Positions 18,394 to 36,597 of a stretch of DNA of 41,053 bases are shown here, one piece after another (within the stretch, counting starts at the first letter, position 1; the number at the start of each line of letters is the position of its first letter). Position numbers and translations under genes: made by a program. Origin of the DNA: a virus (lineage: Duplodnaviria > Heunggongvirae > Uroviricota > Caudoviricetes); IMG/VR virus record IMGVR_UViG_2617270962_000012, positions 1 through 41,053 of that record, one strand, 5' to 3'. The notes under the pieces were generated by a model that did not search any database, had not been told where the DNA came from, and was given only the letters and a program-made list of their open reading frames with translations.

Positions 18394-19634
18394 TGTTCTT
18401 TTCGGGATTATTTCAACGAAAAAGTGACGCACCGGTGACCACGCCAGCAGAGCTGGCGGAGGCTATCGGGTTGTCCTACGACACCTATACCGGAAAGCAG
18501 ATCAGCAGCCAGCGGGCCATGCGACTGACGGCGGTTTTTTCCTGTGTCAGGGTGCTGGCGGAGTCGGTCGGGATGTTGCCCTGCAACCTGTATCACCTGA
18601 ACGGCAGCCTGAAGCAGAGAGCCACTGGCGAACGTCTGCATAAGCTGATCTCCACGCATCCCAATGGCTATATGACGCCGCAGGAGTTCTGGGAGCTGGT
18701 GGTCACCTGTCTGTGCCTGCGGGGAAACTTTTACGCCTACAAAGTGAAAGCATTTGGCGAAGTGGCTGAACTGCTGCCCGTCGATCCCGGCTGTGTGGTA
18801 CCGAAGCTTAACAGTAGCTGGGAGCCGGTCTATCAGGTCACATTCCCGGATGGCTCCACGGATGTACTGAGCCAGGAAGATATCTGGCATGTGCGCACGC
18901 TGACGCTGGACGGACTGGTGGGGCTGAATCCCATCGCCTATGCCCGCGAGGCAATATCGCTGGCGGCAGCGACCGAAGAGCACGGGGCCAGACTGTTCAG
19001 CAATGGCGCGGTGACGTCGGGTGTGTTGCGTACAGAGCAGACGCTGTCAGATCAGGCTTATGAGCGCCTGAAGAAAGATTTTGAGGAGCGTCACACCGGG
19101 CTTGGCAATGCTCACCGCCCGATGATCCTTGAGATGGGGCTGGACTGGAAGTCGATGGCGCTGAACGCCGAGGACAGCCAGTTCCTGGAAACCCGCAAGT
19201 TTCAGCTTGAAGAAATCTGTCGTCTGTTCCGGGTGCCATTGCACATGGTGCAGAACACCGATCGCGCCACCTTCAACAATATCGAAGAGCTGGGGCTGGG
19301 ATTTATCAACTATTCACTGGTGCCGTATCTGACCCGCATTGAGCAGCGGATCAACACCGGACTGGTACGAAAAAGTAAGCAGGGCGTTTATTACGCCAAA
19401 TTTAACGCCGGGGCCTTACTGCGTGGGGATATGAAGTCCCGTTTTGAAGCCTACGCTACCGGGATCAACTGGGGAATTTACTCTCCCAATGACTGCCGCG
19501 ACCTGGAAGATATGAATCCGCGTCCCGGTGGTGATGTCTATCTCACACCGATGAACATGACCACGAAACCCTCCGATGGCAGTAAAGCCGGTAAGCAGAA
19601 GGATAACGCCAATGCAGACGAAACAACGTCTTGA
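18393..19634 (+). CDS. portal protein (HK97-type)
   Basis: 413 aa; position after terminase; typical portal size and composition. Confidence 0.8.
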   Translation: MFFSGLFQRKSDAPVTTPAELAEAIGLSYDTYTGKQISSQRAMRLTAVFSCVRVLAESVGMLPCNLYHLNGSLKQRATGERLHKLISTHPNGYMTPQEFWELVVTCLCLRGNFYAYKVKAFGEVAELLPVDPGCVVPKLNSSWEPVYQVTFPDGSTDVLSQEDIWHVRTLTLDGLVGLNPIAYAREAISLAAATEEHGARLFSNGAVTSGVLRTEQTLSDQAYERLKKDFEERHTGLGNAHRPMILEMGLDWKSMALNAEDSQFLETRKFQLEEICRLFRVPLHMVQNTDRATFNNIEELGLGFINYSLVPYLTRIEQRINTGLVRKSKQGVYYAKFNAGALLRGDMKSRFEAYATGINWGIYSPNDCRDLEDMNPRPGGDVYLTPMNMTTKPSDGSKAGKQKDNANADETTS

Positions 19635-20262
19635 TGTACCGCTGAGTCTGAAATCTGTCAGTGACTCCGGTGAGTTTGAAGGGTATGGCTCCGTCTTTGG
19701 TGTAAAGGACAGCCACGATGATGTGGTGATGTCAGGGGCATTTGCCGCTTCCCTGCGGGCGTGGAGTGACAGAAAAGCGTTACCTGCGCTGCTCTGGCAG
19801 CACCGCATGGATGAACCCATCGGTGTTTACACCGAAATGAAGGAAGACGATGTCGGGCTTTACGTCAGGGGACGGTTGCTTATTGATGATGATCCCCTCG
19901 CAAAACGCGCACATGCACACATGAAGGCCGGTTCGTTAACCGGCCTTTCTATTGGGTACGTCCTGAAAGACTGGGAATACGACCGGACGAAAGAAGCCTT
20001 TCTGCTGAAAGAAATCGACCTCTGGGAAGTCAGTCTGGTGACGTTCCCGTCTAACGACGAGGCGCGGATCAGCGACGTCAAGAACGCGCTGGCCCGCGGG
20101 GAAATCCCCGAACAGAAAAAAATCGAAAGAGTCCTGCGTGATGTCGGACTCTCCCGTACCCAGGCCAAAGCATTCATGGCCGGGGGCTATGGCGCACTGT
20201 CCCTGCGCGACGCTGAGGATGTGAGCTCTGCACTGAATGCACTGAAAAATCTGAACTTCTAA
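19612..20262 (+). CDS. prohead protease (HK97-type)
   Basis: Internal ATG with SD 'aagga' 8 nt upstream; between portal and major capsid. Confidence 0.7.
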   Translation: MQTKQRLDVPLSLKSVSDSGEFEGYGSVFGVKDSHDDVVMSGAFAASLRAWSDRKALPALLWQHRMDEPIGVYTEMKEDDVGLYVRGRLLIDDDPLAKRAHAHMKAGSLTGLSIGYVLKDWEYDRTKEAFLLKEIDLWEVSLVTFPSNDEARISDVKNALARGEIPEQKKIERVLRDVGLSRTQAKAFMAGGYGALSLRDAEDVSSALNALKNLNF

Positions 20263-20276
20263 TCAGGAGAAATACG

Positions 20277-21482
20277 ATGGCGGTAGATATTAAAGATGTC
20301 GAACAGGTCGCGCAGGAGCTGCAGCAGAAGTTTGACGACTTCAAAGCAAAGAACGACAAGCGCGTGGATGCGATTGAGCAGGAAAAAGGCAAGCTTGCCG
20401 GGCAGGTGGAAACCCTGAACGGGAAACTCAGCGAGCTGGAAAATCTCAAAAGCGACCTTGAAAAAGAGCTGCTTGAGCTGAAACGTCCGGCAGGTGGAGC
20501 GCAAAATAAACTGGCCACCGAGCATAAAGAGGCGTTTGTGGGCTTCCTGCGTAAAGGCCGTGAAGACGGTCTGCGCGATCTGGAGCGTAAGGCATTGCAG
20601 GTGGGCACCGATGAAGACGGTGGCTACGCCGTGCCGGAAGAACTGGATCGCAACATTCTTAACCTGCTGAAAGATGAAGTGGTGATGCGTCAGGAAGCCA
20701 CGGTGATCACCGTTGGCGGCTCCGACTACAAAAAACTGGTGAATCTGGGCGGTACGGCTTCCGGATGGGTTGGCGAGACTGACGCGCGATCCCAGACTGC
20801 CACCTCCAGACTGGAGCTGATTGAACCTCTCATGGGGGAAATCTACGGCAACCCGCAGGCTACCCAGAAAATGCTGGACGATGCCTTCTTCAACGTGGAG
20901 GCATGGATCAACAGCGAGCTGGCAACCGAATTTGCCGAACAGGAAGAAATTGCCTTTACCTCAGGCGATGGCACCAAGAAGCCGAAAGGGTTCCTGGCGT
21001 ATGAATCCACTGATGAAACCGACAAGGTCCGGGCGTTCGGCAAACTTCAGCATATTGTATCCGGCGAAGCGACCGCGGTGACCGCAGACGCCATTATCAA
21101 ACTGATTTACACGCTGCGTAAGGCACACCGCACTGGCGCGAAGTTCATGATGAACAACAACAGCCTGTTTGCCATCCGTCTGCTTAAAGACAGCGAGGGT
21201 AACTATCTGTGGCGTCCAGGGCTGGAACTGGGGCAGCCGTCCTCTCTGGCGGGTTACGGTATCGCTGAAAACGAACAGATGCCGGATATCGCCGCTGATG
21301 CGAAAGCCATTGCATTTGGTAACTTCAAACGGGGTTACACCATCGTTGACCGTATCGGCACCCGCATTCTGCGTGACCCGTACACCAATAAACCGTTTGT
21401 CGGTTTTTATACCACCAAGCGCACCGGCGGGATGCTGGTCGATTCGCAGGCCATCAAACTGCTGAAGATTGCAGCGGCGTAA
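20277..21482 (+). CDS. major capsid protein (HK97 fold)
   Basis: 401 aa; N-terminal coiled-coil delta-domain-like region then capsid body; followed by strong terminator. Confidence 0.85.
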   Translation: MAVDIKDVEQVAQELQQKFDDFKAKNDKRVDAIEQEKGKLAGQVETLNGKLSELENLKSDLEKELLELKRPAGGAQNKLATEHKEAFVGFLRKGREDGLRDLERKALQVGTDEDGGYAVPEELDRNILNLLKDEVVMRQEATVITVGGSDYKKLVNLGGTASGWVGETDARSQTATSRLELIEPLMGEIYGNPQATQKMLDDAFFNVEAWINSELATEFAEQEEIAFTSGDGTKKPKGFLAYESTDETDKVRAFGKLQHIVSGEATAVTADAIIKLIYTLRKAHRTGAKFMMNNNSLFAIRLLKDSEGNYLWRPGLELGQPSSLAGYGIAENEQMPDIAADAKAIAFGNFKRGYTIVDRIGTRILRDPYTNKPFVGFYTTKRTGGMLVDSQAIKLLKIAAA

Positions 21483-21489
21483 TCATTCA

Positions 21490-21517
21490 GGGGCGCGGAA
21501 CCGCGCCCCCTGTTTTG
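21490..21517 (+). terminator. rho-independent terminator after major capsid gene
   Basis: 'gggcgcgg aa ccgcgccc' hairpin followed by T-run. Confidence 0.6.
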
Positions 21518-21531
21518 ACGGGTGAAGAATC

Positions 21532-21732
21532 ATGATACTGAAACAAGATCTGAAATGGTCACCGGACGGTATGCGTGTTGAGGTCATTCGGGCCGGTGAG
21601 TATGACGACGGGGCGCTTCCTGCCCGGGTGCAGGAGATTGCACTTCAGGCCGGGTTAGCAGAGCGCGGAATCAGTGCAAAAAGCAGTAAAGCGGCAAAAG
21701 AGAAAAAAGCCACGACCAGTAAAGAGGGCTGA
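21532..21732 (+). CDS. hypothetical small protein
   Basis: 66-aa ORF between capsid and connector genes. Confidence 0.3.
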   Translation: MILKQDLKWSPDGMRVEVIRAGEYDDGALPARVQEIALQAGLAERGISAKSSKAAKEKKATTSKEG

Positions 21733-21734
21733 GT

Positions 21735-22058
21735 ATGCTTCTGACAATGGAAGAGATTAAAGCCCAACTCCGGCTGGATGAGGATTTCGATGCTGATGAC
21801 CGCCATCTGCAACTGCTGGCCTGTGCGGCACAAAAGCGGACGGAAACGTATCTGAACCGGAAGCTCTATGCACCGGATAAAACCATTCCGGACAGCGATC
21901 CGGACGGGCTGCACCTGCCGGATGATATTCGTCTGGGGATGCTGATGCTTATCAGCCATTTTTACGAAAACCGCTCGTCGGTTACGGAAGTGGAGAAACT
22001 CGACATGCCGCAGAGTTTTGGCTGGCTTGTCGGCCCGTACAGGTACTTTCCGCAATGA
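21735..22058 (+). CDS. head-tail connector (gp6-like)
   Basis: 107 aa; position and size typical of HK97-type gp6. Confidence 0.55.
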   Translation: MLLTMEEIKAQLRLDEDFDADDRHLQLLACAAQKRTETYLNRKLYAPDKTIPDSDPDGLHLPDDIRLGMLMLISHFYENRSSVTEVEKLDMPQSFGWLVGPYRYFPQ

Positions 22059-22465
22059 AAATTCGTCAGGCGCAGACCAGCGCAACCTACATTCTGCCTG
22101 ACCCAGGCGAGCTGAATAAACGCGTCCTGATCCGCCAGCGGGTGGATATGCCTGCGGATAACTTTGGCGTGGAGCCTCAATACCCGGTTGCGTTCCGGGC
22201 ATGGGCGAAGGTTGTCCAGACCAGTGCCACCACCTGGCAGGAAACTGCGCAGACCGGGGACGCCATCACCCATTACATCACCATTCGTTACCGCCGGGGG
22301 ATCACCGCTGATTATGAGGTGGTCTGCGGTGACAGTGTGTACCGGGTGAAACGTCAGCGCGATCTGAACGGGGCGCGGCGCTTTCTGCTGCTGGAGTGTA
22401 CGGAGCTGGGCGAATGTAGGCAGAGTCACGGAGGCAGCAATGGCGACTCCCTTTTTTCACGTTGA
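22055..22465 (+). CDS. head-tail adaptor / head closure protein
   Basis: Overlapping start; conserved module position. Confidence 0.5.
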   Translation: MKIRQAQTSATYILPDPGELNKRVLIRQRVDMPADNFGVEPQYPVAFRAWAKVVQTSATTWQETAQTGDAITHYITIRYRRGITADYEVVCGDSVYRVKRQRDLNGARRFLLLECTELGECRQSHGGSNGDSLFSR

Positions 22466-22946
22466 TGTTCAGCAGCCCGCCGAGATGCGCTTTAACCGCG
22501 CCCGTGTCCGGCGGGCGTTTGTCACGATTGGGCAGCGTCATATGCGTGATGCCCGTCGGCTGGTGATGCGCCGTGCGCGGTCGGCACCGGGTGAAAACCC
22601 CGGTTATCAGACCGGACGCCTGGCTCGTTCGATTGGTTATATGGTGCCGAGAGCCAGTAAAAAGCGAGCCGGTTTTATGACACGCATTGCCCCTAACCAG
22701 CGCAACGGGAAGGGGAACCGGATGATCTCTGGTGACTTCTATCCGGCGTTTCTGTTTTTTGGTGTCCGGGGAGGAGCAAAACGTCGTCGTAGTCATCATC
22801 GTGGTGCATCCGGTGGCAGCGGCTGGCGACTGGCTCCACGTAATAACTTCATGGTGGAAACTCTTGAAAAGAACCGCAGCTGGACACGCTATTTTCTGGC
22901 GCGGGAATTGCGTAAATCACTGAAGCCGGAGCGACGACACAGATGA
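22440..22946 (+). CDS. HK97 gp10-like tail component
   Basis: 168-aa ORF in the head-tail joining module. Confidence 0.45.
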   Translation: MATPFFHVDVQQPAEMRFNRARVRRAFVTIGQRHMRDARRLVMRRARSAPGENPGYQTGRLARSIGYMVPRASKKRAGFMTRIAPNQRNGKGNRMISGDFYPAFLFFGVRGGAKRRRSHHRGASGGSGWRLAPRNNFMVETLEKNRSWTRYFLARELRKSLKPERRHR

Positions 22947-23503
22947 AACTGACGCCTGTTATTGCTGCACTGCGTGCCCGCTGTCCGTATTTTGAAAACC
23001 GGGTTGCAGGCGCGGCCCAGTTCAAAAATCTGCCGGAGGTCGGAAAGCTGAAGCTCCCGGCGGCATATGTGGTACCGGGTGATGACTCTCCGGGAGAAAA
23101 CAAAAGCCAGACCGACTACTGGCAGGAGCTGAAAGAGGGCTTCTCCGTGGTTGTCATACTGAGTAACGGGCGTGATGAGCGCGGTCAGTTTGCCTCGTAT
23201 GATGTGGTGGACGATGTCCGGCAGATGCTCTTTAAGGCTCTGCTGGGCTGGAACCCGGAAGCGTGCGGTAACCCGATTACCTATGACGGCGGTACGCTGC
23301 TGGATCTGAATCGTCATGAGCTGATTTATCAGTTCGATTTTTCGGTCATCAGCGAGCTGACTGAAGACGATACCCGCCAGCAGGATGACCTGAACAGTCT
23401 GGATGAACTGCGAACGCTGGCGATTGATGTTGATTATCTCGATCCCGGTAACGGGCCTGACGGCGATATCGAACATCACACCGAAATAACCCTTCCTTCC
23501 TGA
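22943..23503 (+). CDS. tail terminator / tail-associated protein
   Basis: 186-aa ORF immediately upstream of the sheath module. Confidence 0.45.
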   Translation: MKLTPVIAALRARCPYFENRVAGAAQFKNLPEVGKLKLPAAYVVPGDDSPGENKSQTDYWQELKEGFSVVVILSNGRDERGQFASYDVVDDVRQMLFKALLGWNPEACGNPITYDGGTLLDLNRHELIYQFDFSVISELTEDDTRQQDDLNSLDELRTLAIDVDYLDPGNGPDGDIEHHTEITLPS

Positions 23504-23511
23504 GAATCATC

Positions 23512-23682
23512 ATGTTTGTGAAACCTGTTAAAGGGCGGTCAGTGCCTGACCCTGCCCGCGGCGACCTTTTGCCCGCCGAAGGGCGAAATGTTGACGAGAA
23601 CAACTACTGGCTGCGCCGTGAAGCAGCGGGTGATATCCGGCGCGTGAATAAAAAGGTGAATACCGATGACGATAAGCTTTAA
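23512..23682 (+). CDS. small protein upstream of the sheath gene (not in ORF track, under 60 aa)
   Basis: 56-aa ORF 'MFVKPVKGRSVPDPARGDLLPAEGRNVDENNYWLRREAAGDIRRVNKKVNTDDDKL'; overlaps sheath start; conserved position in Mu-like tail clusters. Confidence 0.4.
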   Translation: MFVKPVKGRSVPDPARGDLLPAEGRNVDENNYWLRREAAGDIRRVNKKVNTDDDKL

Positions 23683-25162
23683 CACCATTCCGTCGAATAC
23701 GCTGGTTCCGTTGTTTTATGCGGAAATGGATAACCAGGCGGCGAATACTGCACAGGACAGCGGAGCATCGCTGCTGATTGGTCATGCCAATAACGGTGCA
23801 GAGATTGTTGCCAACAGTCTGGTACTGATGCCGTCGGCAGACTATGCACGCCAGATTTGTGGTGCGGGAAGTCAGCTGGCGCGTATGGTCGAGGCTTATC
23901 GCCAGACTGACCCGTTTGGCGAGCTGTATGTGATTGCCGTTCCTGAATCCACAGGCGCGGCGGCAACAGTTACGCTGACGGTGACCGGGGCAGCAACCGA
24001 AACCGGCACGGTGAATGTTTATGTGGGACGTACCCGCGTGCAGGCACCGGTGACCAACGGCGATAACGTCGCGACGATTGCCAGCAGTATCAAAGATGCC
24101 ATCAATGCCGTTCCGGCCCTGCCGTTTACGGCCTCATCTTCGGCTGGTGTGGTTACACTGACCGCTCGCCATAAGGGGCTTTGCGGGAATGAAATTCCTG
24201 TCAGCCTCAATTACTACGGCTTCGGTGGGGGCGAAGTGCTGCCAGCGGGCGTACAGATTGCCGTGGTGACGGGGAACGCCGGAACGGGCGCTCCTGTTCT
24301 CACCGGCGCGGTGGCTGCAATGGCGGATGAGCCGTTTGATTATATCGGCCTGCCGTTCAACGACACGGCCTCCGTTAACACGCTGGTGACCGAGATGAAC
24401 GATACCAGCGGTCGCTGGAGCTATGCGCGTCAGCTGTATGGTCATGTGTATACGGCAAAGATCGGCACGCTGTCAGAACTGGTGACCGCAGGTGACCAGT
24501 TTAACCAGCAGCACATTACCCTGGCGGGGTACGAAAAAGACACCCAGACGCCTGCCGACGAGCTGGCGGCAAGCCGTACCGCCCGCGCAGCGGTGTTTAT
24601 CCGCAACGATCCGGCACGTCCCACGCAGACCGGTGAGCTGGTGGGTATGCTGCCTGCGCCGAAGGGGAAACGGTTCACGATGACCGAGCAGCAGACCCTG
24701 CTGTCTCATGGCGTGGCAACGGCGTATGTCGAAAGCGGGGTGCTGCGCATTCAGCGTGATGTCACCACGTACAGGAAAAATGCTTACGGGGTTGCGGATA
24801 ACAGCTACCTCGACAGCGAGACGCTGCATACCAGTGCGTATGTACTGCGCAAACTGAAATCCGTCATTACCAGTAAGTACGGGCGTCACAAGCTTGCCAG
24901 CGACGGTACCCGCTTTGGTCCCGGTCAGGCGATTGTCACCCCGGCGGTAATCAAAGGGGAACTGCTGGCAACCTACCGTCAGCTTGAGCGTGCGGGGATC
25001 GTGGAAAACTACGAACTGTTTAAGCAGTACCTGGTTGTGGAGCGTGATGCCAGCGATCCGAACCGCCTGAACACGCTGTTCCCGCCTGACTATGTTAACC
25101 AGTTGCGTGTTTTTGCCGTGGTTAACCAGTTCCGTCTTCAGTATTCAGAGGAGTCTGCATAA
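23666..25162 (+). CDS. contractile tail sheath protein (Mu L-like)
   Basis: 498 aa; followed by tube, chaperone and tape-measure genes. Confidence 0.8.
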   Translation: MTISFNTIPSNTLVPLFYAEMDNQAANTAQDSGASLLIGHANNGAEIVANSLVLMPSADYARQICGAGSQLARMVEAYRQTDPFGELYVIAVPESTGAAATVTLTVTGAATETGTVNVYVGRTRVQAPVTNGDNVATIASSIKDAINAVPALPFTASSSAGVVTLTARHKGLCGNEIPVSLNYYGFGGGEVLPAGVQIAVVTGNAGTGAPVLTGAVAAMADEPFDYIGLPFNDTASVNTLVTEMNDTSGRWSYARQLYGHVYTAKIGTLSELVTAGDQFNQQHITLAGYEKDTQTPADELAASRTARAAVFIRNDPARPTQTGELVGMLPAPKGKRFTMTEQQTLLSHGVATAYVESGVLRIQRDVTTYRKNAYGVADNSYLDSETLHTSAYVLRKLKSVITSKYGRHKLASDGTRFGPGQAIVTPAVIKGELLATYRQLERAGIVENYELFKQYLVVERDASDPNRLNTLFPPDYVNQLRVFAVVNQFRLQYSEESA

Positions 25163-25518
25163 TGGCCCGTATCGGGGGAACCTGTTATTTCAAAATTGAC
25201 GGTCAGCAGCTATCGCTGACCGGCGGCATTGAGGTGCCCATGAACAGGACGGTCAATGATGACATCATCGGCCTGGACGGTTCAGTGGACCGCAAGGAAA
25301 CTCACCGTGCGCCTTATGTCAAAGGGACCTTCAAGGTGCCGAAGAATTTTCCGGTGAGCAAAATCACCTCGTCTGATGAGATGACCATCACTGCCGAGCT
25401 GGCGAACGGTCAGGTCTATGTATTGTCGTCCGCCTGGCTGCACGGAGAAGCGAACCATAATGCCGAAGAAGGCACGGTTGATCTTGAGTTCCACGGTGAA
25501 GAAGGGGATTACCAGTAA
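25162..25518 (+). CDS. tail tube protein
   Basis: 118 aa directly downstream of sheath. Confidence 0.7.
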   Translation: MARIGGTCYFKIDGQQLSLTGGIEVPMNRTVNDDIIGLDGSVDRKETHRAPYVKGTFKVPKNFPVSKITSSDEMTITAELANGQVYVLSSAWLHGEANHNAEEGTVDLEFHGEEGDYQ

Positions 25519-25787
25519 TGAAAGAGCTTGAGTTAAAGAAACCGATTATCGCTCATGGTGAGACACTCTCCGTACTGGAGTTTGATGAACCCACCGGGAA
25601 GGATGTCCGCGAGCTGGGGTATCCCTACCAGATGAATCAGGATGAGTCCGTCAGACTTCTGGCGCATGTGGTGTCGAAATACATTGTGCGGCTGGCGAAA
25701 GTGCCGCAAAGCTCTGTCGACCAGATGTCTCCGGCAGACCTGAATGCAGCGGCGTGGCTTGTGGCTGGTTTTTTCCTCCAGGCCTGA
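25518..25787 (+). CDS. tail assembly chaperone (short product); -1 frameshift-extended form ends at 25936
   Basis: Pair of overlapping ORFs (25518-25787 frame 0; 25754-25936 frame -1) upstream of tape measure. Confidence 0.6.
   Translation: MKELELKKPIIAHGETLSVLEFDEPTGKDVRELGYPYQMNQDESVRLLAHVVSKYIVRLAKVPQSSVDQMSPADLNAAAWLVAGFFLQA
25769..25775 (+). promoter_or_regulatory. programmed -1 ribosomal frameshift slippery heptamer
   Basis: 'T TTT TTC' in the zero frame, 10 nt before the zero-frame stop. Confidence 0.55.
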
Positions 25788-25928
25788 CGGCTGAATACCT
25801 CACTGATCGCTTCTTTGACTGCGCCAGCTACTGGCGCATTAATCCCTTCGAATTGCTGAATATGCCGATCAGTGAAATTCCCTTGCTGGTCAGTCAGGCA
25901 AACAGGATAGAGCAGGAGAAACGCACAC

Positions 25929-27761
25929 ATGGCTGAATTTGAGCTTAAGGCGTTGATCACCGGTGTCGACAGGCTTTCTCCCGCGCTGTCGAAAATGCAA
26001 AAGAAAATCCGGGGATTTAAACGCCAGGCGGAAGAAGCGTCACAGGGTGGGCTGGCGCTTGGTGGCGGACTGGCAGCGGGTCTGACGCTTTCCCTGAAAT
26101 CTTATGCTGATCAGGAAAACGCCGCCACCGGGCTGAAAGTCGCCATGATGGATGCGAACGGCGAGGTTGGAAAGAGCTTTCAGGACATCAATAAACTGGC
26201 TATTGGCCTGGGTAACCAGCTACCCGGTACAACGGCTGATTTCCAGAACATGATGCAGATGCTGGTGCGTCAGGGGATCCCGGCAGAAAACATTCTTGGT
26301 GGTGTGGGTAAAGCGACAGCTTATCTTGCGGTACAACTGAAAAAAACACCGGAAGCGGCTGCTGAGTTTGCCGCAAAGATGCAGGATGCTACCGGAACGG
26401 CCTCAGAAGACATGATGGGGCTGTTCGACACAATTCAGAAGGCGTTTTATCTGGGCGTGGACGATACCAACATGCTGTCATTCTTCACTAAAACCAGCTC
26501 TGTTCTGAAGATGGTGAATAAGGACGGTCTTCAGGCTGCACAGAGTCTTGCCCCCATCAGTGTCATGATGGATCAGATGGGGATGAACGGGGAGTCGGCA
26601 GGTAATGCCCTGCGAAAAGTTATCCAGTCCGGATTAAGCGTTAAGAAAATCAGGGACGTCAATAAAATCATGGCCCGCCAGAAACTCGGGGTACAGCTCG
26701 ATTTTACTGATGGCAAAGGGAGTTTTGGCGGTCTTGATAACATGTTCAGGCAACTGGCAAAGCTGCGAAAACTGACCGACGTTAAGCGAACCGGTGTACT
26801 TAAGGCAATATTTGGTGATGATGCCGAAACCCTTCAGGTGGTCAATGCACTAATCGATAAAGGAAAGGATGGCTACGATCAGATCCAGCAGAAGATGAAT
26901 AAACAGGCCAGCCTGAATAAACGTGTTCAGGCTCAGCTTGGTACGCTGTCCAACCTGTGGGAGGCAATGACGGGGACCGCAACTAACGGCCTTGCGGCTA
27001 TTGGCGGCGCATTTTCTGGTGACGCTAAGAACATCACGCAGTGGCTGGGGGAGTTGGGGGAGAAATTCACGAAGTTTGCGGATGAAAATCCCCGGGTTAT
27101 TCGCGGCGTCGTCGGGCTTGCTGCCGGTCTTGCGATTCTGAAACTGGGATTGATGGGCGTGGGCAGTGCCATCAGCATTGTCAGCAGGATCATGTCGATG
27201 ACGCCGATTGGCATGATTGCGACGGCGATAGCCCTGGCTGCGGGATTAATTATCACTAACTGGGATGTTGTCGGACCTTATTTCAAGAAGCTCTGGGAAA
27301 CCATTGGTCCTTATTTTGAGGCTGGCTGGGAACTCCTTAAGAAAGTTTTTGCCTGGTCGCCGCTGGGGATGGTGATCAATAACTGGGGACCGGTTGTTAA
27401 GTGGTTTCAGGATATGTGGGATAAGCTGAAGCCGATTATTGAATGGTTTACCGACAGTTCCGGTGACACGGTCGATACCATTAACTCGGCGCAGTGGGGC
27501 GCGGGTGCTTATGATGCTTATGGGACGGGAATACCGGCACGGGGATACACGCCTTATCCGGCGGTGGATCCGGCTCAGGCAAACAACGCCTCCGATGCCA
27601 CAGGCTCGAATCCCTTCATGATTAATAAAGCTACCGCGCCAAAAGTTGATGGTGAGATCAAGGTATCATTTATAAATATGCCACCAGGTATGCGGGTTAC
27701 GGAAACACGCTCCAGTGGCATTGATATAAATCACGATGTTGGCTATACCCGATTTTGGTAG
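25929..27761 (+). CDS. tail tape measure protein
   Basis: 610 aa; helical N-terminal part and hydrophobic Gly/Ala-rich segments; downstream of chaperone. Confidence 0.8.
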   Translation: MAEFELKALITGVDRLSPALSKMQKKIRGFKRQAEEASQGGLALGGGLAAGLTLSLKSYADQENAATGLKVAMMDANGEVGKSFQDINKLAIGLGNQLPGTTADFQNMMQMLVRQGIPAENILGGVGKATAYLAVQLKKTPEAAAEFAAKMQDATGTASEDMMGLFDTIQKAFYLGVDDTNMLSFFTKTSSVLKMVNKDGLQAAQSLAPISVMMDQMGMNGESAGNALRKVIQSGLSVKKIRDVNKIMARQKLGVQLDFTDGKGSFGGLDNMFRQLAKLRKLTDVKRTGVLKAIFGDDAETLQVVNALIDKGKDGYDQIQQKMNKQASLNKRVQAQLGTLSNLWEAMTGTATNGLAAIGGAFSGDAKNITQWLGELGEKFTKFADENPRVIRGVVGLAAGLAILKLGLMGVGSAISIVSRIMSMTPIGMIATAIALAAGLIITNWDVVGPYFKKLWETIGPYFEAGWELLKKVFAWSPLGMVINNWGPVVKWFQDMWDKLKPIIEWFTDSSGDTVDTINSAQWGAGAYDAYGTGIPARGYTPYPAVDPAQANNASDATGSNPFMINKATAPKVDGEIKVSFINMPPGMRVTETRSSGIDINHDVGYTRFW

Positions 27762-27852: not shown

Positions 27853-28383
27853 ATGAAAGGCTATATCACAGCAAGTGTAATTCTTGGAGCAGCGGCTATT
27901 TTTTCATCTCTCATAATCTCTGGCAACATCTCCTTTAAAGATGAACATATTATTCAGTTATCTGGAGGAGCCATAAAACTTGGTGATGTTTATAAAGAAA
28001 ATAAATTGATAAGTGCAAAGATTATTTTTCCAGATAATCAGGGTGAACAGATTCTTGTTGTCGACGGCAATCCTGAAAACTTTAAGGAGGATTTTCAGGA
28101 GAAATTAAATAAAGTAATAAAAACTTTAAATGCGTCAAAGAAAAAAGATGAAGAGAAAGTTAGCCTGGATAATTTAAGTGTTATTGAAGAGTCTAAACTA
28201 GAGCTCGTTTCTGCGGTGCGTTACTCTGCTCAGTATGTTCCTATGTTTACTCTGACGCTGGACAAAAAAGAAATTACCATGCCTAAAAATACGGTAATAT
28301 TTCCATTTGCCAGCGATGAAACAGCTAAGTATTTAAATGAACAACAGCAAAAGTATAAAGATTCGTTGTTTCTGACTCGCTAA
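27853..28383 (+). CDS. AT-rich moron: secreted or membrane-anchored protein of unknown function
   Basis: 176 aa; N-terminal signal/anchor; Lys/Glu-rich; own promoter-like upstream region and terminator downstream. Confidence 0.45.
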   Translation: MKGYITASVILGAAAIFSSLIISGNISFKDEHIIQLSGGAIKLGDVYKENKLISAKIIFPDNQGEQILVVDGNPENFKEDFQEKLNKVIKTLNASKKKDEEKVSLDNLSVIEESKLELVSAVRYSAQYVPMFTLTLDKKEITMPKNTVIFPFASDETAKYLNEQQQKYKDSLFLTR

Positions 28384-31397: not shown

Positions 31398-31822
31398 TGG
31401 AACTGTGGCTGACGGTGAACGGTAAACGCACCTGCGCCAGCGCACCGCTGGATCCGCTGACCCGCGCTGTGGTGATTTCCCTGTTCACCTGGCGGCGGGC
31501 GGAGCCTGATGACAACGCCGACGTCCCGATGGGATGGTGGGGGGATACCTGGCCTGCGGTACAGAATGACCGTTACGGCTCCCGACTGTGGCTGCTTCAG
31601 CGCAGCAAACTGACCAATCAGCTGGTGCAGACGGTAAGGGGGTATATCCGCGAATGCCTGCAATGGATGATTGATGACGGCGTGGTGTCCCGTATTGATC
31701 TGGATATCCGCCGCACCGGGATTAATGAGCTGGGTAACAGTATCACTCTCTGGCGTCGTGACGGACCGGTAATGATTTCTTTTGATGATCTGTGGAGTGC
31801 GATAACGCATGGCGGACAGTGA
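31394..31822 (+). CDS. baseplate protein (Mu gp46-like)
   Basis: 142 aa; overlaps neighbours. Confidence 0.55.
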   Translation: MMELWLTVNGKRTCASAPLDPLTRAVVISLFTWRRAEPDDNADVPMGWWGDTWPAVQNDRYGSRLWLLQRSKLTNQLVQTVRGYIRECLQWMIDDGVVSRIDLDIRRTGINELGNSITLWRRDGPVMISFDDLWSAITHGGQ

Positions 31823-32867
31823 ATTTCAGCGCCCGACGCTGGCAGAAAATATCAGTATGCTCCGTAACGATTTATTCGCCAGGCTGGACGTCAGCGACAC
31901 GCTCCGGCGCATGGATGAAGACGTGCGGGCAAAGGTGTATGCGGCGGCGCTGCATACGGTTTACGGGTACATCGATTATCTGGCAATGAATATGCTGCCT
32001 GACCTGTGCGATGAGTCCTGGCTGGCGCGACATGCTGCGATGAAACGGTGTCCGCGCAAGGGGGCCACGGCTGCCAGCGGGTATGTGCGCTGGGAAGGTG
32101 TCAGCGATGGCCTGAAGGTGACCGCCGGGAGTGTTATTCAGCGCGATGACCTGGTTCAGTACACGGCAACTGCCGATGCAACCAGCTCCGGTGGTGTCCT
32201 GCGTGTGCCGATCACTTGCTCAACTACAGGCGCGGTCGGTAACGCTGACGACGGTACGGCATTAATCCTGGTCACGCCGGTGAATGGTCTGCCGTCTTCC
32301 GGTGTTGCAGATACCCTGACTGGCGGATTCGATACTGAAGATCTGGAAACGTGGCGCGCCCGCGTCATTGAGCGGTATTACTGGACGCCGCAGGGCGGGG
32401 CTGACGGGGACTATGTCGTCTGGGCTAAAGAAGTGCCCGGCATTACCCGCGCATGGACATACCGTCACTGGATGGGAACGGGAACTGTCGGTGTGATGAT
32501 TGCCGGCAGTGACCTGATTAATCCCATTCCGGAAGAATCAACGGAAACGGCGGCAAGACAACATATCGGGCCACTGGCCCCGGTGGCAGGCTCTGATTTG
32601 TATGTGTTCAGGCCGGTGGCACATACGGTGGATTTTCATATCCGCGTGACGCCGGACACACCGGAAATACGGGCTGCCATCACCGCCGAGTTGCGTTCGT
32701 TCCTGCTGCGTGATGGTTATCCGCAGGGAGAACTGAAGGTGTCACGTATCAGTGAAGCGATTTCCGGTGCGAACGGGGAATACAGCCATCAGTTGCTTGC
32801 ACCGGCGGACAATATCTCCATTGCAAAAAATGAACTGGCGGTTCTGGGGACGATTTCATGGACGTGA
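31809..32867 (+). CDS. baseplate J-like protein (Mu gp47-like)
   Basis: 352 aa; conserved order. Confidence 0.7.
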
Positions 32868-33442
32868 CAAACGATGATTACATCCGTCTGTTGTCGGCAC
32901 TGCTGCCGCCCGGTCCGGCGTGGTCAGCCAGCGATCCGGCGATTGCTGGTGCGGCACCGTCATTAACCCGCGTTCATCAGCGTGCGGATGCCCTGATGCG
33001 GGAGCTGGATCCGCGCACCACCACTGAACTGATAAACCGCTGGGAGCGTCTGTGCGGTCTGCCGGATGAATGTATTCCCGCAGGGACACAGACCCTTCGC
33101 CAGCGTCAGCAACGGCTGGATGCGAAGGTTAATCTGGCTGGCGGCATCAATGAGGATTTTTATCTTGCACAGCTTGCTGCCCTGGGCAGACCAGACGCCA
33201 CTATCACGCGATACGATAAAAGCACGTTCACCTGCTCATCGGCCTGTACTGACGCGGTGAATGCGCCGGAATGGCGGTATTACTGGCATGTCAACATGCC
33301 AGCCGCCACCAACACCACCTGGATGACATGTGGCGATCCCTGTGATTCCGCACTGCGTATCTGGGGCGACACCGTTGTCGAGTGTGTGCTTAACAAACTC
33401 TGCCCGTCGCATACCTACGTAATTTTTAAATATCCGGAGTAA
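32858..33442 (+). CDS. tail protein (Mu gp48-like)
   Basis: 194 aa; Cys-rich C-terminus; between J-like and tail fiber genes. Confidence 0.55.
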
Positions 33443-33445
33443 TCC

Positions 33446-34507
33446 ATGCATCGTATAGACACAAAAACCGCGCAGAAGGATAAGTTCGGCGCGGGTAAGA
33501 ACGGTTTTACCCGTGGTAACCCCCAGACCGGCACGCCAGCCACCGATCTGGATGATGACTACTTTGACATGTTGCAGGAGGAGCTTTGCAGCGTGGTGGA
33601 GGCATCCGGTGCCAGCCTGGAGAAGGGGCGGCATGACCAGCTGCTTACCGCGCTTTGTGCGCTGCTGTTAAGTCGTAAAAATCCGTTTGGCGATATCAAA
33701 TCGGATGGCACTGTGCAAACGGCTCTCGAAAACCTGCAATTGAGAGAATCATTTTCTGGCGTTGTTGGGCAATCGCGAAATGCCAGAATGTCAGTGGCTG
33801 CCGCGAGTGTTACAGCGACATTTTCAGCCGATGAGTTGATTGTTGAAGATGGTGATGGACGCCAGTATCGATTGAGTAATTTCAATAAATCTGTAGATCT
33901 GATGAATACTGGGGCTGGTGGTATGGATACGGGGACAGTGCCGGAAACAGGATTTGTTGCTTTGTATGCGATTTATAATCCGACTACTTATATGTCGTCA
34001 TTGCTTGCGGTAAACGCAACCACCGCTGGATTGCCAGAGATTTATGGTGGTTCGGCATTACCTCATGGCTATACTGCCAGCGCACTGGTAAGTGTTTGGG
34101 GTATTTCAAAATCAAAATTCAAAACTGGAATGCAACATGGGCGGGTAATTAACACTGACCGTCAGATAGCAATAACAACAACCGCAAAAATAAACAATCT
34201 AACTGAGTTATCTATTGCCTCGATTGTTCCAAAAAATGCAAGAAAAGTGAGCGGCTATGGTTCTATCTATGCAACATCAGGTGATGAGAAATCGGGCGGT
34301 TTAATTATAGATGTCGCATCCACCAGTAGTGGTGTTGGACGCGTATCAATCGGTGGGTATGTTGGGAATTATGGTATAGGGGTTTATGGTCAGTTTACAG
34401 AATTATTGCTATCAACCCCGCAATCAATTTTTTATGACGTGAATCCAGACGGCACATCAATCACGGAGTTTTCTGCATCATTATTTATCAGTGGGTATAC
34501 GATATGA
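33446..34507 (+). CDS. tail fiber protein
   Basis: Conserved N-terminal anchor '[47 protein letters not shown]'; AT-rich, Gly/Ser-rich variable C-terminus. Confidence 0.7.
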
Positions 34508-34668
34508 TTTATGCCGAATTAACACCAGATGAAAAGTCAATTGTTGCATTGTTCTCATGTGAGCAAGAAAATACTACGCAGATTCATAAAAATGATGTGC
34601 GCTATATTGAGTTTTATAACCTACAACCAAAGTTCATTCAGAAGCTACTGCCTACACCGGCGGTATAA
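34504..34668 (+). CDS. small ORF translationally coupled to tail fiber (possible fiber chaperone)
   Basis: 54-aa ORF starting in an ATGA overlap with the fiber stop; not in ORF track (under 60 aa). Confidence 0.3.
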
Positions 34669-34973
34669 GGAACATGCCAATGATTGACTTGTTTCCCGGA
34701 GGCGTAGCCCTGGCTGGATTTGATGTATCAACGCGCATCAGCAGATATTGAATAGCACGATATGCTTGTATAGGGAATTCTATCAGATATAATTGATGAG
34801 ACTGAACTGTGACACACAAAACGTTGCACTGGAATGTAATGCTTTGAATGCTTCTATGTTGAGGATGTAACGTGGTTTGAACTATTTACAGTATATATGA
34901 TTATTCTACATATTGATGTCGATATGTATGAATGTTTTTATAAGTGAAGTGCATGCGAATAATTCGCAATATG

Positions 34974-35006
34974 ATTAGAGTCAATGTAATGGTTATTGAC
35001 TCTAAT
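34974..35006. terminator. perfect 12-bp inverted repeat hairpin between convergent fiber-side and acyltransferase genes
   Basis: 'attagagtcaat' - 9 nt - 'attgactctaat', followed by T-rich sequence on the plus strand. Confidence 0.4.
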
Positions 35007-35026
35007 TTATTACAAAATAACTTTAT

Positions 35027-36094
35027 TTAATGAAATTTAGTTCGGATGAATTGTTGCGATGGTTTTTCAATGAGTATATATGACATATAGCTAATTGCTA
35101 TTAATGTAAGCATGAACAAAATGAATACATTGGGTCTGTAAAAAATATCGCGTCCATAGCCAATCTTGTCAGCTAAATAAACAACAATGATTTGCAAAGG
35201 AAAATGTAAAAGATAAGATGAATAACTGATATCACCCAACCATTCAATTTTCTTCCCAAAATCGTTTCGTATTGCGCTAATTGATACAAGGAAAAAGATT
35301 ATGGAGGTAAATCCGAATAAGATAATTGAGAATATATCTGCTACTTGCAGGGTAAAGATAACTCCCCATGAGATCAATAGAAAAACACAAGCAAAAATAA
35401 AAAATAACTTTGCGCTAATATTTTTTATGGCCGCAATCGTAATTTTATAAGTTAGACCACCAATAAAGAAAGAGAATGCGCCGATCATTATGGGATTGTT
35501 AATTTTGAAAAAGTAGTACGACAATGCAACTATTAAAATTGATATGAATGTTGTTTTTGATGTGAACTTGCATAATATAAAAAATATCATGTACATAAGT
35601 ACTTCAATCGACACGGACCATGTCGGGGCGTTGAAGGACCAACCTCGCTCAAATCCCCATGATTGAATCATCAATAAATTCAGAATGGCATGGTAAATGT
35701 CATTCATAGGATAAACAAAAAAATAATTATGACTTTTAAAGAAAATAATTTGTAATATTGCCACGACAGCAAATGTAAATATATAAAGTGGATATAATCT
35801 ACTGACACGGTTAACTATAAAAGTTTTTGCTGAGGTTTTATTGCTGTGTATATTGTCAGCGTATAGATAAAAAAATATGAATCCAGAAATCATAAAAAAC
35901 AATTCGACAGCATATAAACCGTAATGATAAAAGACGGAAAAAAATTCATAAAAAGGTTGGCGGTTTATGATTATGTCAGATGCAGCATTCTTTTTCATAA
36001 AAAAATGTTGCCAATGCCATAACACAACGGAAAGTGCGGCAAATCCTCTCAGAACATCCAGGGTATATATTCTCTTCCCAAAAACATTCGTCAC
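35027..36094 (-). CDS. acyltransferase family 3 integral membrane protein (O-antigen acetylase-like)
   Basis: 355 aa, about ten hydrophobic segments, N-terminal 'LDVLRGFAALSVVLWH' typical of acyltransferase-3; very AT-rich. Confidence 0.75.
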   Translation of the reverse strand: MTNVFGKRIYTLDVLRGFAALSVVLWHWQHFFMKKNAASDIIINRQPFYEFFSVFYHYGLYAVELFFMISGFIFFYLYADNIHSNKTSAKTFIVNRVSRLYPLYIFTFAVVAILQIIFFKSHNYFFVYPMNDIYHAILNLLMIQSWGFERGWSFNAPTWSVSIEVLMYMIFFILCKFTSKTTFISILIVALSYYFFKINNPIMIGAFSFFIGGLTYKITIAAIKNISAKLFFIFACVFLLISWGVIFTLQVADIFSIILFGFTSIIFFLVSISAIRNDFGKKIEWLGDISYSSYLLHFPLQIIVVYLADKIGYGRDIFYRPNVFILFMLTLIAISYMSYILIEKPSQQFIRTKFH

Positions 36095-36597
36095 AACGAA
36101 CCTCTTTTAATAAAGTCAAGTGATAATGAAAGATAAATATTGTAAACGAAAAAGCACTGGACTGGAACATATATCTCTGCCTATAATTTAACTAGGATAA
36201 TTTTACTAACGCAGTCATAATTCGTTCATGTATACCAGATGAAAGTACATGTTCTATGAAATAGGGTTTTGCCTGGAGTTTGAAGGTTTTTAACGATTAT
36301 ACCTGTTTAATCGACTCCCCATGTTTTTTGACATTATCCACCGCACACGATACTGGATGCCAGGCAAACTGATTTGCTGGCATAAAGTCACTGAGAATTT
36401 TTTACCAACAATATCTTGCCACATCTTTTCCCGCACAGTTTCGGCAATAGAATCAGCGGGCAGCGGTCATCAATATTCACCAGACATTGATCTGCCGCAC
36501 TATCTGACCGGTGTCCTGCTGAGAATACTAATTTCTTTTTTTGCAAGTGCTGTCCAATCATGATTGGGGGGGTGCCCCTATTAAGTTGTCAAGCATG

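Follow-up and report, generated by a model that had tools for sequence, protein, structure and literature searches.

An AT3 acyltransferase cassette beside the tail fiber of an Escherichia coli prophage is a candidate for O-antigen modification

O-antigen acetylases encoded by phages are a textbook case of lysogenic conversion. Could an acyltransferase gene that lies beside a prophage tail fiber, and that is only remotely similar to those enzymes, act in the same way? The question is raised by the window analyzed here, a stretch of 41,053 nucleotides of Caudoviricetes DNA (IMG/VR record IMGVR_UViG_2617270962_000012). The window is an E. coli prophage, and a gene for an acyltransferase of the AT3 family sits between its tail fiber and the dinI-integrase-dusA end. 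The original prediction treated the gene as a lysogenic-conversion candidate, laid out like the phage O-antigen acetylases that change host serotype and block superinfection. We consider this the best explanation of the locus: the gene is probably prophage cargo (a “moron”) encoding an O-acyltransferase, with O-antigen as the likely acceptor and with serotype change and receptor masking as the putative outcome. The category of phage O-antigen acetylases is known already, and the AT3 subfamily described here is most likely a member of it.

The AT3 gene and its product

The gene occupies positions 35027 to 36094 on the minus strand and encodes a predicted AT3-only membrane O-acyltransferase of 355 amino acids, with a GTG start at 36094 and a TAA stop. 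Six bases ahead of the GTG, a GAGG Shine-Dalgarno element could be read from the sequence (36101 to 36104, minus strand), and it is unchanged in 6/6 aligned copies of the cassette described below. The product matches Pfam PF01757 (Acyl_transf_3) with an E value of 3.7e-25 and 89.1 bits (cutoff, 31). This match runs nearly end to end, with residues 10 to 334 aligning to positions 2 to 321 of the 326-position profile, and upholds the first reading of a multipass AT3 protein encoded on the opposite strand. The protein was assigned to phrog_3333 in PHROG. The AT-rich island noted at the outset is equally evident, with G+C contents of 0.317 in the gene and 0.30 to 0.32 in both flanks versus 0.58 in the baseplate genes.

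Motifs named as conserved or essential in AT3 proteins are R/K-x10-H, FFxISG, and RxxR (PMC7448272), and each has its counterpart here. TMH1 contains R16-x10-H27, both residues of which are invariant among 50 homologs; FFMISG corresponds to FFxISG, with F66, F67, S70, and G71 invariant in the same set; and RVSR (R96-V-S-R99) supplies the RxxR motif, with R96, S98, and R99 invariant. The invariant TMH1 histidine is the catalytic one, equivalent to H25 of OafA, and in Oac and OafB the RxxR motif, which lies in the first loop on the cytoplasmic side, is essential (PMC7448272). An AlphaFold2 model (pLDDT 91, pTM 0.90) has ten long helices, so that a ten-helix transmembrane acyltransferase fold is confidently predicted. 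Comparison with a Citrobacter homolog gave a dN/dS of 0.20 (66 synonymous and 60 nonsynonymous changes), and comparison with the allele of strain IAI1 gave 0.25; ratios of about 0.2 in these alignments indicate purifying selection on the gene. No NCBIfam model matched the AT3 protein, the tail fiber, or the neighboring 54-amino-acid open reading frame (ORF), no PADLOC defense-system model matched the AT3 protein, and a sequence search of solved structures with that protein returned no match.

Prophage context and cassette limits

Gene order from 33446 to 40677 places the AT3 gene between the tail fiber and the integrase end, as anticipated. The fiber gene (33446 to 34507, plus strand; PHROG tail-fiber families) has an N terminus of about 100 amino acids common to e14 StfP-type fibers and, from about 33735, a tip of a rare type and lower G+C. 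A 54-amino-acid ORF (34504 to 34668, plus strand; phrog_20339, function unknown) travels with this tip, and its counterpart is annotated behind the same tip in strain B27. Behind a related fiber tip, B27 also has an invertible fiber segment. On the other side of the AT3 gene lie ISEc20 of the IS110 family (36576 to 38029, minus strand; named in strain PD7), with its transposase at 36598 to 37794 (PF01548 and PF02371), then a dinI-like gene (38143 to 38391, minus strand; Pfam DinI), a tyrosine integrase gene at the prophage end (38453 to 39550, minus strand; Pfam Phage_integrase), and dusA (39652 to 40677, plus strand; Pfam Dus). Both PD7 and the circular element of CT01 have the same dinI-integrase-dusA arrangement. 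PD7 is the twin strain of the window, with an identical locus, and its O-antigen cluster, of a rare type, comprises O60-family wzm/wzt, manC, manB, gmd, and a methyltransferase gene.

Overall, apart from the fiber tip and the cargo slot, the window is 97% identical to a dusA element of 43.6 kb that is present as a circle in the O8 strains AH02/CT01; this circular form suggests that the dusA prophage is able to excise. Alignment with a sister element (L004) is divergent between 33735 and 34805, and homology resumes at 38030, past ISEc20, in the place of which the sister carries a GIY-YIG gene together with a restriction-modification pair. These alignments indicate that the fiber tip of this prophage has been exchanged. 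Among 5,426 complete E. coli genomes, the tip of the window occurs in three, PD7 (100%) and B27 and EC6 (88%), which are also the sole carriers of the PD7-type (O60-family) wzt. Given the exchanged tip, and a nearest strain of the O60 type rather than O8 or O9, the AT3 gene in this prophage may be the legacy of an earlier host.

The island had been drawn from 34669 to 36320. An AT3 island is indeed present, but these limits are not, as the transferable unit common to different prophages is an AT-rich cassette of ∼1.8 kb from 34805 to 36575. Homology with other prophages stops on the left at 34805 (34841 in IAI1) and on the right at 36572 to 36575. Positions 34669 to 34804 fall outside the cassette and belong to the fiber-tip block; their sole recognizable content is a short tail-fiber-assembly-like stretch, 49 bases (34695 to 34743) with a 92% match to annotated tail-fiber assembly genes. 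We interpret 34669 to 34804 as a leftover of the fiber module because of this DNA match and the block structure, comparison of a minus-strand ORF (34652 to 34819) with the B27 tail-fiber assembly protein being not significant. Within the cassette, the gene is flanked at its 3′ side by 34805 to 35026 (minus strand, 30% G+C) and at its 5′ side by an AT-rich leader (36095 to 36289, minus strand, 32% G+C), a putative regulatory region that is near-invariant across cassette copies. Within the upstream end (36290 to 36575, minus strand, 44% G+C) are a gene fragment, a TATAAT, and a variable A run: the L006 counterpart of 36297 to 36383 bears the annotation of an SOS response-associated peptidase truncated at its N terminus, and the run at ∼36536 to 36542 varies among cassette copies as A7, A8, or A9.

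The cassette was present in 49 of the 5,426 genomes, lodged behind the fiber module in dusA, icd/e14-like, IAI1-type, and other prophages. Seven E. coli contexts were read, covering at least four prophage contexts, and the cassette is convergent to that module in each of them. A near-identity search of phage records found the cassette in no deposited phage genome, with matches confined to insertion sequence (IS) and assembly-gene fragments, and the best match to the AT3 protein in such records was 38% identical, on an unannotated fecal contig.

Expression signals and disrupted alleles

A promoter region belonging to the island itself was also predicted. A consensus scan did not support it: no minus-strand promoter was returned upstream of the gene, and the total of promoter-like sites was below that of shuffled sequences (7 versus 10.9). 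By eye, a perfect TATAAT lies at 36301 to 36296 on the minus strand, without a −35 element. Islands of 31% G+C are the sort of DNA that is silenced by H-NS in E. coli. In PD7, an IS1 at 36109 to 36117, 15 bp upstream of the AT3 start codon, parts that codon from its upstream region.

Between the convergent fiber and AT3 genes, a hairpin of fourteen pairs (34973 to 35007) has a dG of −21.5 kcal/mol on the plus strand, where UUUAUU follows, and −19.6 on the minus strand. Its z is about −4.6, none of 200 shuffles folded equally well, and across cassette copies its stems are kept, with changes confined to the loop. The hairpin is a probable two-way terminator and fits an independent AT3 transcription unit; a terminator scan called no terminator-like site in the region, this hairpin included. 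An Rfam scan of 34000 to 38500 at a permissive threshold gave two sub-threshold chance matches only.

An A7/T6 tract at about 35995 to 36005 had been put forward as a possible site of slipped-strand switching. The A7 is there (35999 to 36005, plus strand; T7 on the coding strand), spans codons H30-F31-F32-M33, and is a frameshift hot spot; the adjacent run is a T5 (35991 to 35995) rather than a T6. Were slippage in this tract to turn the gene on and off, AT3 would be a phase-variable contingency locus, for which there are precedents in the phase-variable AT3 genes of Haemophilus and an epigenetically switched one in Salmonella (PMC9558356). Two of 48 genomes, DS26-1 and EH09-18-41, both complete, from different countries, and with different cassette-flanking sequences, have T6 exactly at 35999 to 36005; in these alleles the AT3 frame ends after 32 codons and an upstream ORF (ATG at 36170) fuses in, yielding a 396-amino-acid product (WP_233408252.1) that is listed for nine E. 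coli sequences. However, seven-base runs occur in the gene at chance frequency (4 T7 runs seen, against the 4.6 ± 1.6 that a synonymous-codon shuffle predicts), so the tract is best viewed as a chance product of a Phe-rich, AT-rich gene, and it is short for a contingency tract. The two T6 alleles, moreover, have three single-nucleotide polymorphisms (SNPs) in common and may descend from one event, and one T6 allele carries a second frameshift. Other alleles break elsewhere, with gene calls from M68 and M130 and +1/−1 changes at the four-base K281-K282 run, and frameshifted, truncated, and IS-flanked alleles are common. Because the T6 alleles accompany frameshifts elsewhere, second-site frameshifts, and IS insertions, the whole looks like repeated decay rather than reversible switching, and we regard a contingency locus as highly improbable. 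A Dam/OxyR epigenetic switch of the gtr/oafB type was ruled out: the 480 bp upstream of the gene contain a single GATC (at 36489), with no pair and no gtr-like cluster.

Frequent disruption of the gene, together with the negative promoter scan and the IS1 of PD7, would also suit an explanation in which AT3 is silent or useless baggage here, inherited from an O8/O9-adapted ancestor and intact for the brief time since the tip swap and the move to an O60-type host. The 97% identity to the AH02/CT01 (O8) element outside the tip and cargo slot, and the confinement of the tip to the three genomes with PD7-type wzt, point the same way. Nevertheless, the frame in the window is intact and retains every subfamily-invariant residue, and exactly the same protein recurs on 23 contigs. 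The O60-type cluster is, like those of O8 and O9, of the ABC-transporter, mannose-pathway kind, so the PD7 polymer may still be a substrate. We judge such baggage unlikely; it would in any case describe the present state of this copy rather than the function of the family, and is compatible with an O-antigen acyltransferase.

Comparison with known acetylases and homologs

A close precedent in layout is Sf6 Oac, the AT3-only 2-O-acetylase of rhamnose I from a Shigella phage, which brings about serotype conversion and superinfection immunity. The two proteins are of similar size (333 versus 355 amino acids) and have in common the family motifs that are essential or conserved (PMC7448272). In Sf6, the acyltransferase gene (minus strand) lies directly after the receptor-binding gene (plus strand); a terminator separates the two, and the integrase is situated farther on. 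The window has the same layout, with the hairpin as the probable terminator. The sequences, however, are barely alignable (31% identity over 86 C-terminal residues; E = 0.004 in a single comparison), Sf6 is a podovirus with a tailspike whereas the window encodes a contractile Mu-like tail with a fiber, and the host glycans differ; the activity of Oac is proven, while that of the window protein is predicted. The E. coli O157 phage phiV10 likewise has a convergent AT3 oac gene (minus strand) directly after its receptor-binding gene (plus strand), annotated as acetylating O-antigen for superinfection immunity, but its product is just 21% identical to the window protein over 84 amino acids. An O-acetyltransferase of coliphage TL-2011b, itself uncharacterized, is encoded beside the tail fiber and aligns over its full length at 27% identity. 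Both phages are epsilon15-like, with hosts that have Wzx/Wzy O-antigens. Neither Sf6 Oac nor phiV10 Oac is a close relative. The Salmonella proteins OafA and OafB, which modify O-antigen in the periplasm and affect phage interaction, have the AT3 domain, the TMH1 histidine, and the RxxR motif (PMC7448272, PMC9558356). Unlike the window protein, they have eleven helices and, fused to the AT3 part, an SGNH domain that makes the final transfer; OafB differs also in its epigenetic switching, of which the window gene shows no sign.

Outside the enterobacteria, the closest homologs (43 to 44% identity over the full length; 365 to 366 amino acids) are from Pseudomonas savastanoi/syringae and Xanthomonas albilineans. 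The genes read in context, one from each species, lie inside O-polysaccharide clusters of the ABC-transporter pathway type, to which the clusters of E. coli O8/O9 and PD7 also belong. They are surrounded there by wzm/wzt, deoxyhexose pathway genes, and genes for a double-GT4 polymerase and a methyltransferase that terminates the chain. These homologs differ from our gene in being chromosomal parts of biosynthetic clusters rather than phage cargo, and, as far as we could find, their function, too, is predicted. Closer to the window, a Citrobacter prophage homolog (84%) has the same position relative to the fiber module, and those of Serratia (50%) and K. aerogenes (47%) lie between fiber-adaptor genes and genes for fibers or beta-helix tailspikes. 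A tail-fiber-side position is therefore common to prophage homologs in four genera, E. coli, Citrobacter, Serratia, and Klebsiella. A Kluyvera homolog (59%) is chromosomal, without phage or O-antigen surroundings.

O-antigen types of the carriers

Carriers of the cassette are strongly biased in O-antigen type. O8 wzt was found in 35 of 48 carriers and O9 wzt in 7, whereas their shares across all genomes are about 5.5% and 3.8%; O8 or O9 carriers thus make up 42/48 (88%) versus a background of 9% (odds ratio, 74; P = 7e-38). Among genomes with the fiber tip that usually neighbors the cassette, 74% of those with AT3 but 35% of those without it are O8 (odds ratio, 5.5; P = 5e-7). Fiber carriers without AT3 being already 35% O8, the O8 bias belongs partly to the neighboring fiber and the phage lineage, and some of the association needs no explanation beyond host range. 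An intact gene is present in O8 and O9 carriers such as IAI1, NCTC11129, and PEC131. That this common tip is tied to the cassette was rejected, as the tip occurs in 293 genomes, P1-like plasmids included; that all carriers have ABC-transporter O-antigens was rejected as well, PC-NDM34 and 22AR0322 having Wzx/Wzy clusters. In the O8 strain IAI1, the galF-gnd interval contains a second polysaccharide cluster.

The enzyme could instead be active on another envelope glycan, such as enterobacterial common antigen (ECA), lipopolysaccharide (LPS) core, K antigen/colanic acid, periplasmic glucans, or peptidoglycan. AT3-only proteins serve many acceptors, among them WecH (ECA), OpgC (periplasmic glucans), IcaC, and others (PMC9558356). 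The remote similarity of the nearest characterized phage acetylases, the chromosomal Kluyvera homolog, the unrelated Wzx/Wzy O-antigens of at least two carriers, and the second cluster of IAI1 would all be in keeping with such an acceptor. A conserved acceptor, though, would predict neither 88% O8/O9 carriers nor homologs inside O-polysaccharide clusters and beside beta-helix tailspikes, which makes this alternative improbable in our estimation. The O-antigen acetylase interpretation is strengthened by the same comparative evidence, namely, a layout like those of Sf6 and phiV10, placement beside fibers in four genera, homologs in O-antigen clusters, and the O8/O9 bias of carriers.

Proposed function and implications

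We infer the donor and the acceptor of the acyl group, expression of the gene in lysogens, and an exclusion phenotype along the following lines. As in other AT3 enzymes, the acyl group, which is most likely an acetyl supplied by acetyl-CoA in the cytoplasm, would pass through the ten-helix bundle by means of the Arg-x10-His pair in TMH1 and the loop with the RxxR motif. At the periplasmic face, it would then be transferred to a hydroxyl of a polysaccharide sugar. The most likely acceptor would be O-antigen that is still lipid-linked, and probably, in detail, the mannose/rhamnose-type homopolymers of the Wzm/Wzt ABC-transporter pathway (E. coli O8, O9). Acetylation would alter the serotype epitope and hide the receptor of phages with the neighboring fiber type, and we propose that the lysogen therefore resists superinfection. 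The gene travels in the 1.8-kb cassette, which is lodged, convergent to the tail-fiber genes, in several unrelated prophages.

Several observations count against an O-antigen acetylase: its remote similarity to the proven phage enzymes (Sf6 Oac and phiV10 Oac), the negative promoter scan and H-NS-type DNA, the part of the O8 bias that goes with fiber and phage lineage, the two or more Wzx/Wzy carriers, the swapped tip of the window and a twin strain that is not O8/O9, the IS1 ahead of the gene in PD7, and the commonness of disrupted alleles. To our knowledge, moreover, no O-acetyl group is known from the E. coli O8/O9 mannans, which are described as unacetylated. Our literature search found no paper reporting O-acetyl on these mannans and nothing specific on this cassette or on prophage-made acetylated O8/O9 mannans.

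More tentatively, the subfamily may act specifically on O-polysaccharides that are products of the Wzm/Wzt ABC-transporter pathway, namely, D-mannans and rhamnans such as those of E. coli O8/O9. If so, a mobile 1.8-kb cassette would create unrecognized O-acetylated O8/O9 subtypes, and lysogens would be shielded from phages bearing the companion fiber tip of the cassette. The subfamily is uncharacterized yet recurs beside tail fibers in E. coli, Citrobacter, Serratia, and Klebsiella prophages, and the O8/O9 bias indicates where to look, for acetyl groups on O8/O9 mannans in carriers versus noncarriers. The rare fiber tip and the rare O60-type wzt, found together in 3/3 genomes of 5,426, point to a directly testable fiber-receptor pair. 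The mannose polymers of E. coli O8 and O9 recur as the O5 and O3 antigens of Klebsiella, which are under consideration as vaccine targets. An unnoticed acetylated variant of O8/O9 (Klebsiella O5/O3) would bear on serotyping and vaccine design.

Results

An acyltransferase-3 (AT3) gene occupies positions 35027-36094 of the window, on the strand opposite to that of the tail fiber gene. It begins with a GTG codon, six bases 3′ of a GAGG, and its 355-residue product matches the Pfam family Acyl_transf_3 (PF01757) from end to end (E = 3.7e-25) and the phage family phrog_3333, “O-acetyltransferase” (E = 4e-41). These matches, together with a G+C content of 0.317 in the gene and 0.30 to 0.32 in both flanks versus 0.58 in the baseplate genes, confirm the original prediction of such a gene in an AT-rich island. 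In AT3 carbohydrate acetyltransferases, an Arg-x10-His arrangement in the first helix and the motifs FFxISG and RxxR are invariant or essential (PMC7448272). The protein has all three (R16 and H27 in the first helix, residues 66 to 71, and residues 96 to 99), and none of these residues varies across 50 aligned homologues, the most distant at 38% identity. A confident AlphaFold2 model computed from this alignment (pLDDT, 91; pTM, 0.90) contains ten long helices. The protein lacks a fused SGNH domain and therefore has an “AT3-only” architecture, which it shares with Oac of phage Sf6. The dN/dS ratio is 0.20 against a Citrobacter homologue (84% identical) and 0.25 against the allele of strain IAI1, so purifying selection has acted on the protein. 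The ORF is an intact AT3-only O-acyltransferase gene, carried as prophage cargo on a mobile AT-rich cassette between the tail fiber and integrase genes.

Comparison with other genomes places the recurring unit at 34805-36575; the AT-rich island stands, but its earlier limits (34669-36320) do not. Bases 34669-34804 fall in a block (33735-34804) that differs from a sister element, the circular dusA prophage of strains AH02 and CT01, and their sole recognizable content is a 49-base match to tail fiber assembly genes; a comparison of proteins was not significant. The far end, 36290-36575, has a G+C content of 44% and contains a fragment that is labeled in another genome as a truncated SOS-response-associated peptidase. 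The island had also been credited with its own promoter. A scan for consensus sites gave no minus-strand hit ahead of the AT3 gene, promoter-like sites in the region were fewer than in shuffled sequence, and a perfect TATAAT noted by eye (36301-36296) has no −35 partner. Between the convergent fiber and AT3 genes lies a hairpin of fourteen pairs (34973-35007), a probable two-way terminator, that folds much better than its shuffles (z about −4.6), with conserved stems and a variable loop. The locus in strain PD7 is identical to the window apart from an IS1 copy (10774-11471 of PD7 sequence L003) whose insertion point is 15 bp before the GTG, the 9-bp overlap corresponding to window positions 36109-36117; this insertion would separate the AT3 gene from any upstream promoter. 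Near the distal cassette end, in noncoding sequence (∼36536-36542, ∼440 bp upstream of the gene), a minus-strand A run differs in length among copies, with seven bases in the window, eight in MSI001, and nine in IAI1; it has no evident function.

Slipped-strand switching at an A7/T6 tract had been suggested. The A7 is present (35999-36005), but the adjoining run is T5, and the coding strand has four T7 runs against 4.6 ± 1.6 expected from synonymous-codon shuffles, a number that reflects the protein's 48 phenylalanines and AT-rich codons. Two complete genomes, those of DS26-1 and EH09-18-41, have T6 in place of the first T7 run; the normal frame then ends after 32 codons, and an upstream ORF is fused, replacing the helix that bears R16 and H27, a fusion that PGAP calls as a 396-aa protein. 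The wider protein collection includes other disrupted forms: gene calls from M68 (22 contigs) and M130 (36 contigs), single-base gains and losses (+1 and −1) within the four-base run at K281-K282, a T6 allele that has acquired another frameshift, and, in the circular copy of CT01, a T4 run shortened by one base. PD7 and EH09-18-41 have insertion sequences ahead of the AT3 gene, and a gtr-type cluster of GATC sites is absent upstream. With T7 runs at the shuffle expectation and frameshifts at several sites alongside insertions, these alleles look like those of an accessory gene that has been lost repeatedly and do not suggest one reversible switch.

The gene was found in 49 of 5,426 complete E. 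coli genomes, and no deposited phage genome carried it at high identity. We read seven E. coli contexts of the cassette: two dusA prophages, a 43.6-kb circular form of one of these (deposited as a “plasmid,” with a dusA fragment), an e14-like prophage at icd, an IAI1 prophage with a different baseplate type near yfhH, and two other sites. In all seven, the cassette directly follows a tail fiber or fiber assembly gene, on the opposite strand. The Citrobacter homologue likewise follows the fiber genes of a prophage with a Mu-like tail, and homologues in Serratia marcescens (50%) and Klebsiella aerogenes (47%) lie between a fiber adaptor gene and fiber or beta-helix tailspike genes. The acetylases of phages Sf6 and phiV10 are linked experimentally to O-antigen modification and immunity; their genes show the convergent order seen in the window, and the proteins are only remotely related to the AT3 protein described here. 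The best full-length phage match, at 27% identity, is a TL-2011b protein that is itself uncharacterized.

The window covers the right two-thirds of a prophage inserted in E. coli DNA at the 5′ end of dusA (39652-40677). The AT3 gene is preceded by a baseplate J gene (31809-32867), a Mu gp48/YmfQ-like gene (32858-33442), the tail fiber gene (33446-34507), and a 54-aa ORF (34504-34668); ISEc20 (IS110 family; 36576-38029, transposase at 36598-37794) separates the cassette from a dinI-like gene (38143-38391), and a tyrosine integrase follows (38453-39550). The circular element of AH02 and CT01 is 97% identical over the structural genes and integrase end, and the differing blocks are two, the fiber tip (33735-34804) and a cargo slot. 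This slot holds ISEc20 in the window and, in CT01, a GIY-YIG (LEM-3-like) gene, a cytosine methyltransferase, and a type II restriction enzyme, and it looks like a hot spot for defense cargo. A SIR2-family gene fills it in another carrier. The AH02 (NZ_CP081704.1) and CT01 (NZ_CP081794.1) circles are the excised form of the same prophage type and include a 105-base fragment of the dusA 5′ end; phages of this family thus seem capable of excision. The chromosomes of both strains also carry an AT3 copy. Two more low-G+C pockets of the window (0.35 to 0.40) contain ORFs of 176 aa (27853-28383, +), 208 aa (14343-14969, −), and 117 aa (15013-15366, −), which had no match in Pfam or PADLOC and may be further prophage cargo genes. 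At the right end of ISEc20 (38025-38073, +), a subthreshold Rfam match to the Shigella sRNA CssrB (25.8 bits; gathering score, 76) is probably due to chance.

Homologue neighborhoods and the O types of carriers are two independent lines that point to O-antigen, and to one class of it. Homologues in Pseudomonas savastanoi and Xanthomonas albilineans (43 to 44%) lie within O-polysaccharide clusters of the ABC transporter type. These clusters combine wzm/wzt, including the Wzt C-terminal domain, with genes for a terminating methyltransferase and a double-GT4 polymerase and for deoxyhexose or mannose pathways. For O typing, the AT3 gene was joined to serogroup-specific wzt segments as a query, and records with both pieces were counted among 48 genomes with a full-length copy. 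O8 wzt was present in 35 of the 48 and O9 wzt in 7; PD7 had an “O60 family” wzm/wzt cluster with manC, manB, gmd, and a methyltransferase, two genomes had Wzx/Wzy clusters, and three were not typed. The background of O8 plus O9 is ∼9% of the collection (carrier odds ratio, 74; P = 7e-38), and the O8/O9 count with obvious clones collapsed was 38 of 43. The fiber tip that usually lies ahead of the cassette (293 genomes) is itself O8 biased, and among its carriers the O8 share was 74% with the AT3 gene versus 35% without (odds ratio, 5.5; P = 5e-7). Since tip carriers without the gene are already 35% O8, part of the association reflects phage host range, and the gene contributes further. O8 strain IAI1 has, besides an O8 wzm/wzt cluster adjoining his, a second, Wzx/Wzy-type cluster between galF and gnd (18758-26819 of IAI1 sequence L023) with a flippase, an EpsG-family polymerase-like gene, and a pyruvyl transferase, and O9 strain PEC131 has a flippase gene upstream of gnd.

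The fiber tip of the window was found elsewhere in the 5,426 genomes only in PD7 (100%) and in B27 and EC6 (88%), in the latter two on a P2-like prophage with an invertible fiber segment (window, 33735-34710; B27 sequence L016, 4938-6919; PD7 sequence L024, 6266-8273). The PD7-type (O60 family) wzt was confined to the same three genomes, a striking one-to-one match of fiber tip and O-antigen type that suggests a specific fiber-receptor pair. AH02 and CT01, hosts of the 97%-identical element, are O8, and the O60-type polymer of PD7 is likewise a product of the ABC transporter and mannose pathways. In the simplest history, a dusA phage from O8/O9 hosts would have exchanged its fiber tip and moved to an O60-type host, with the acetylase retained.

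Discussion

The most likely mechanism would be periplasmic O-acetylation of lipid-linked O-polysaccharide by the AT3 enzyme, which would benefit the lysogen by masking the receptor; donor, acceptor, expression, and phenotype are as we infer them here. O-antigen is, on balance, the probable acceptor. Activity in the window's particular host is less likely, as is a superinfection exclusion phenotype. The host range and gene parts of the O8 association are both compatible with, but not proof of, a module whose fiber and enzyme act on one polysaccharide, the fiber by recognizing it and the enzyme by modifying it. The AT3 gene is an uncharacterized addition to the well-known class of phage O-antigen acetylases. 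This analysis adds the limits of the cassette, its recurrent placement across genera, and an O8/O9 association that makes a general annotation testable by a specific experiment.
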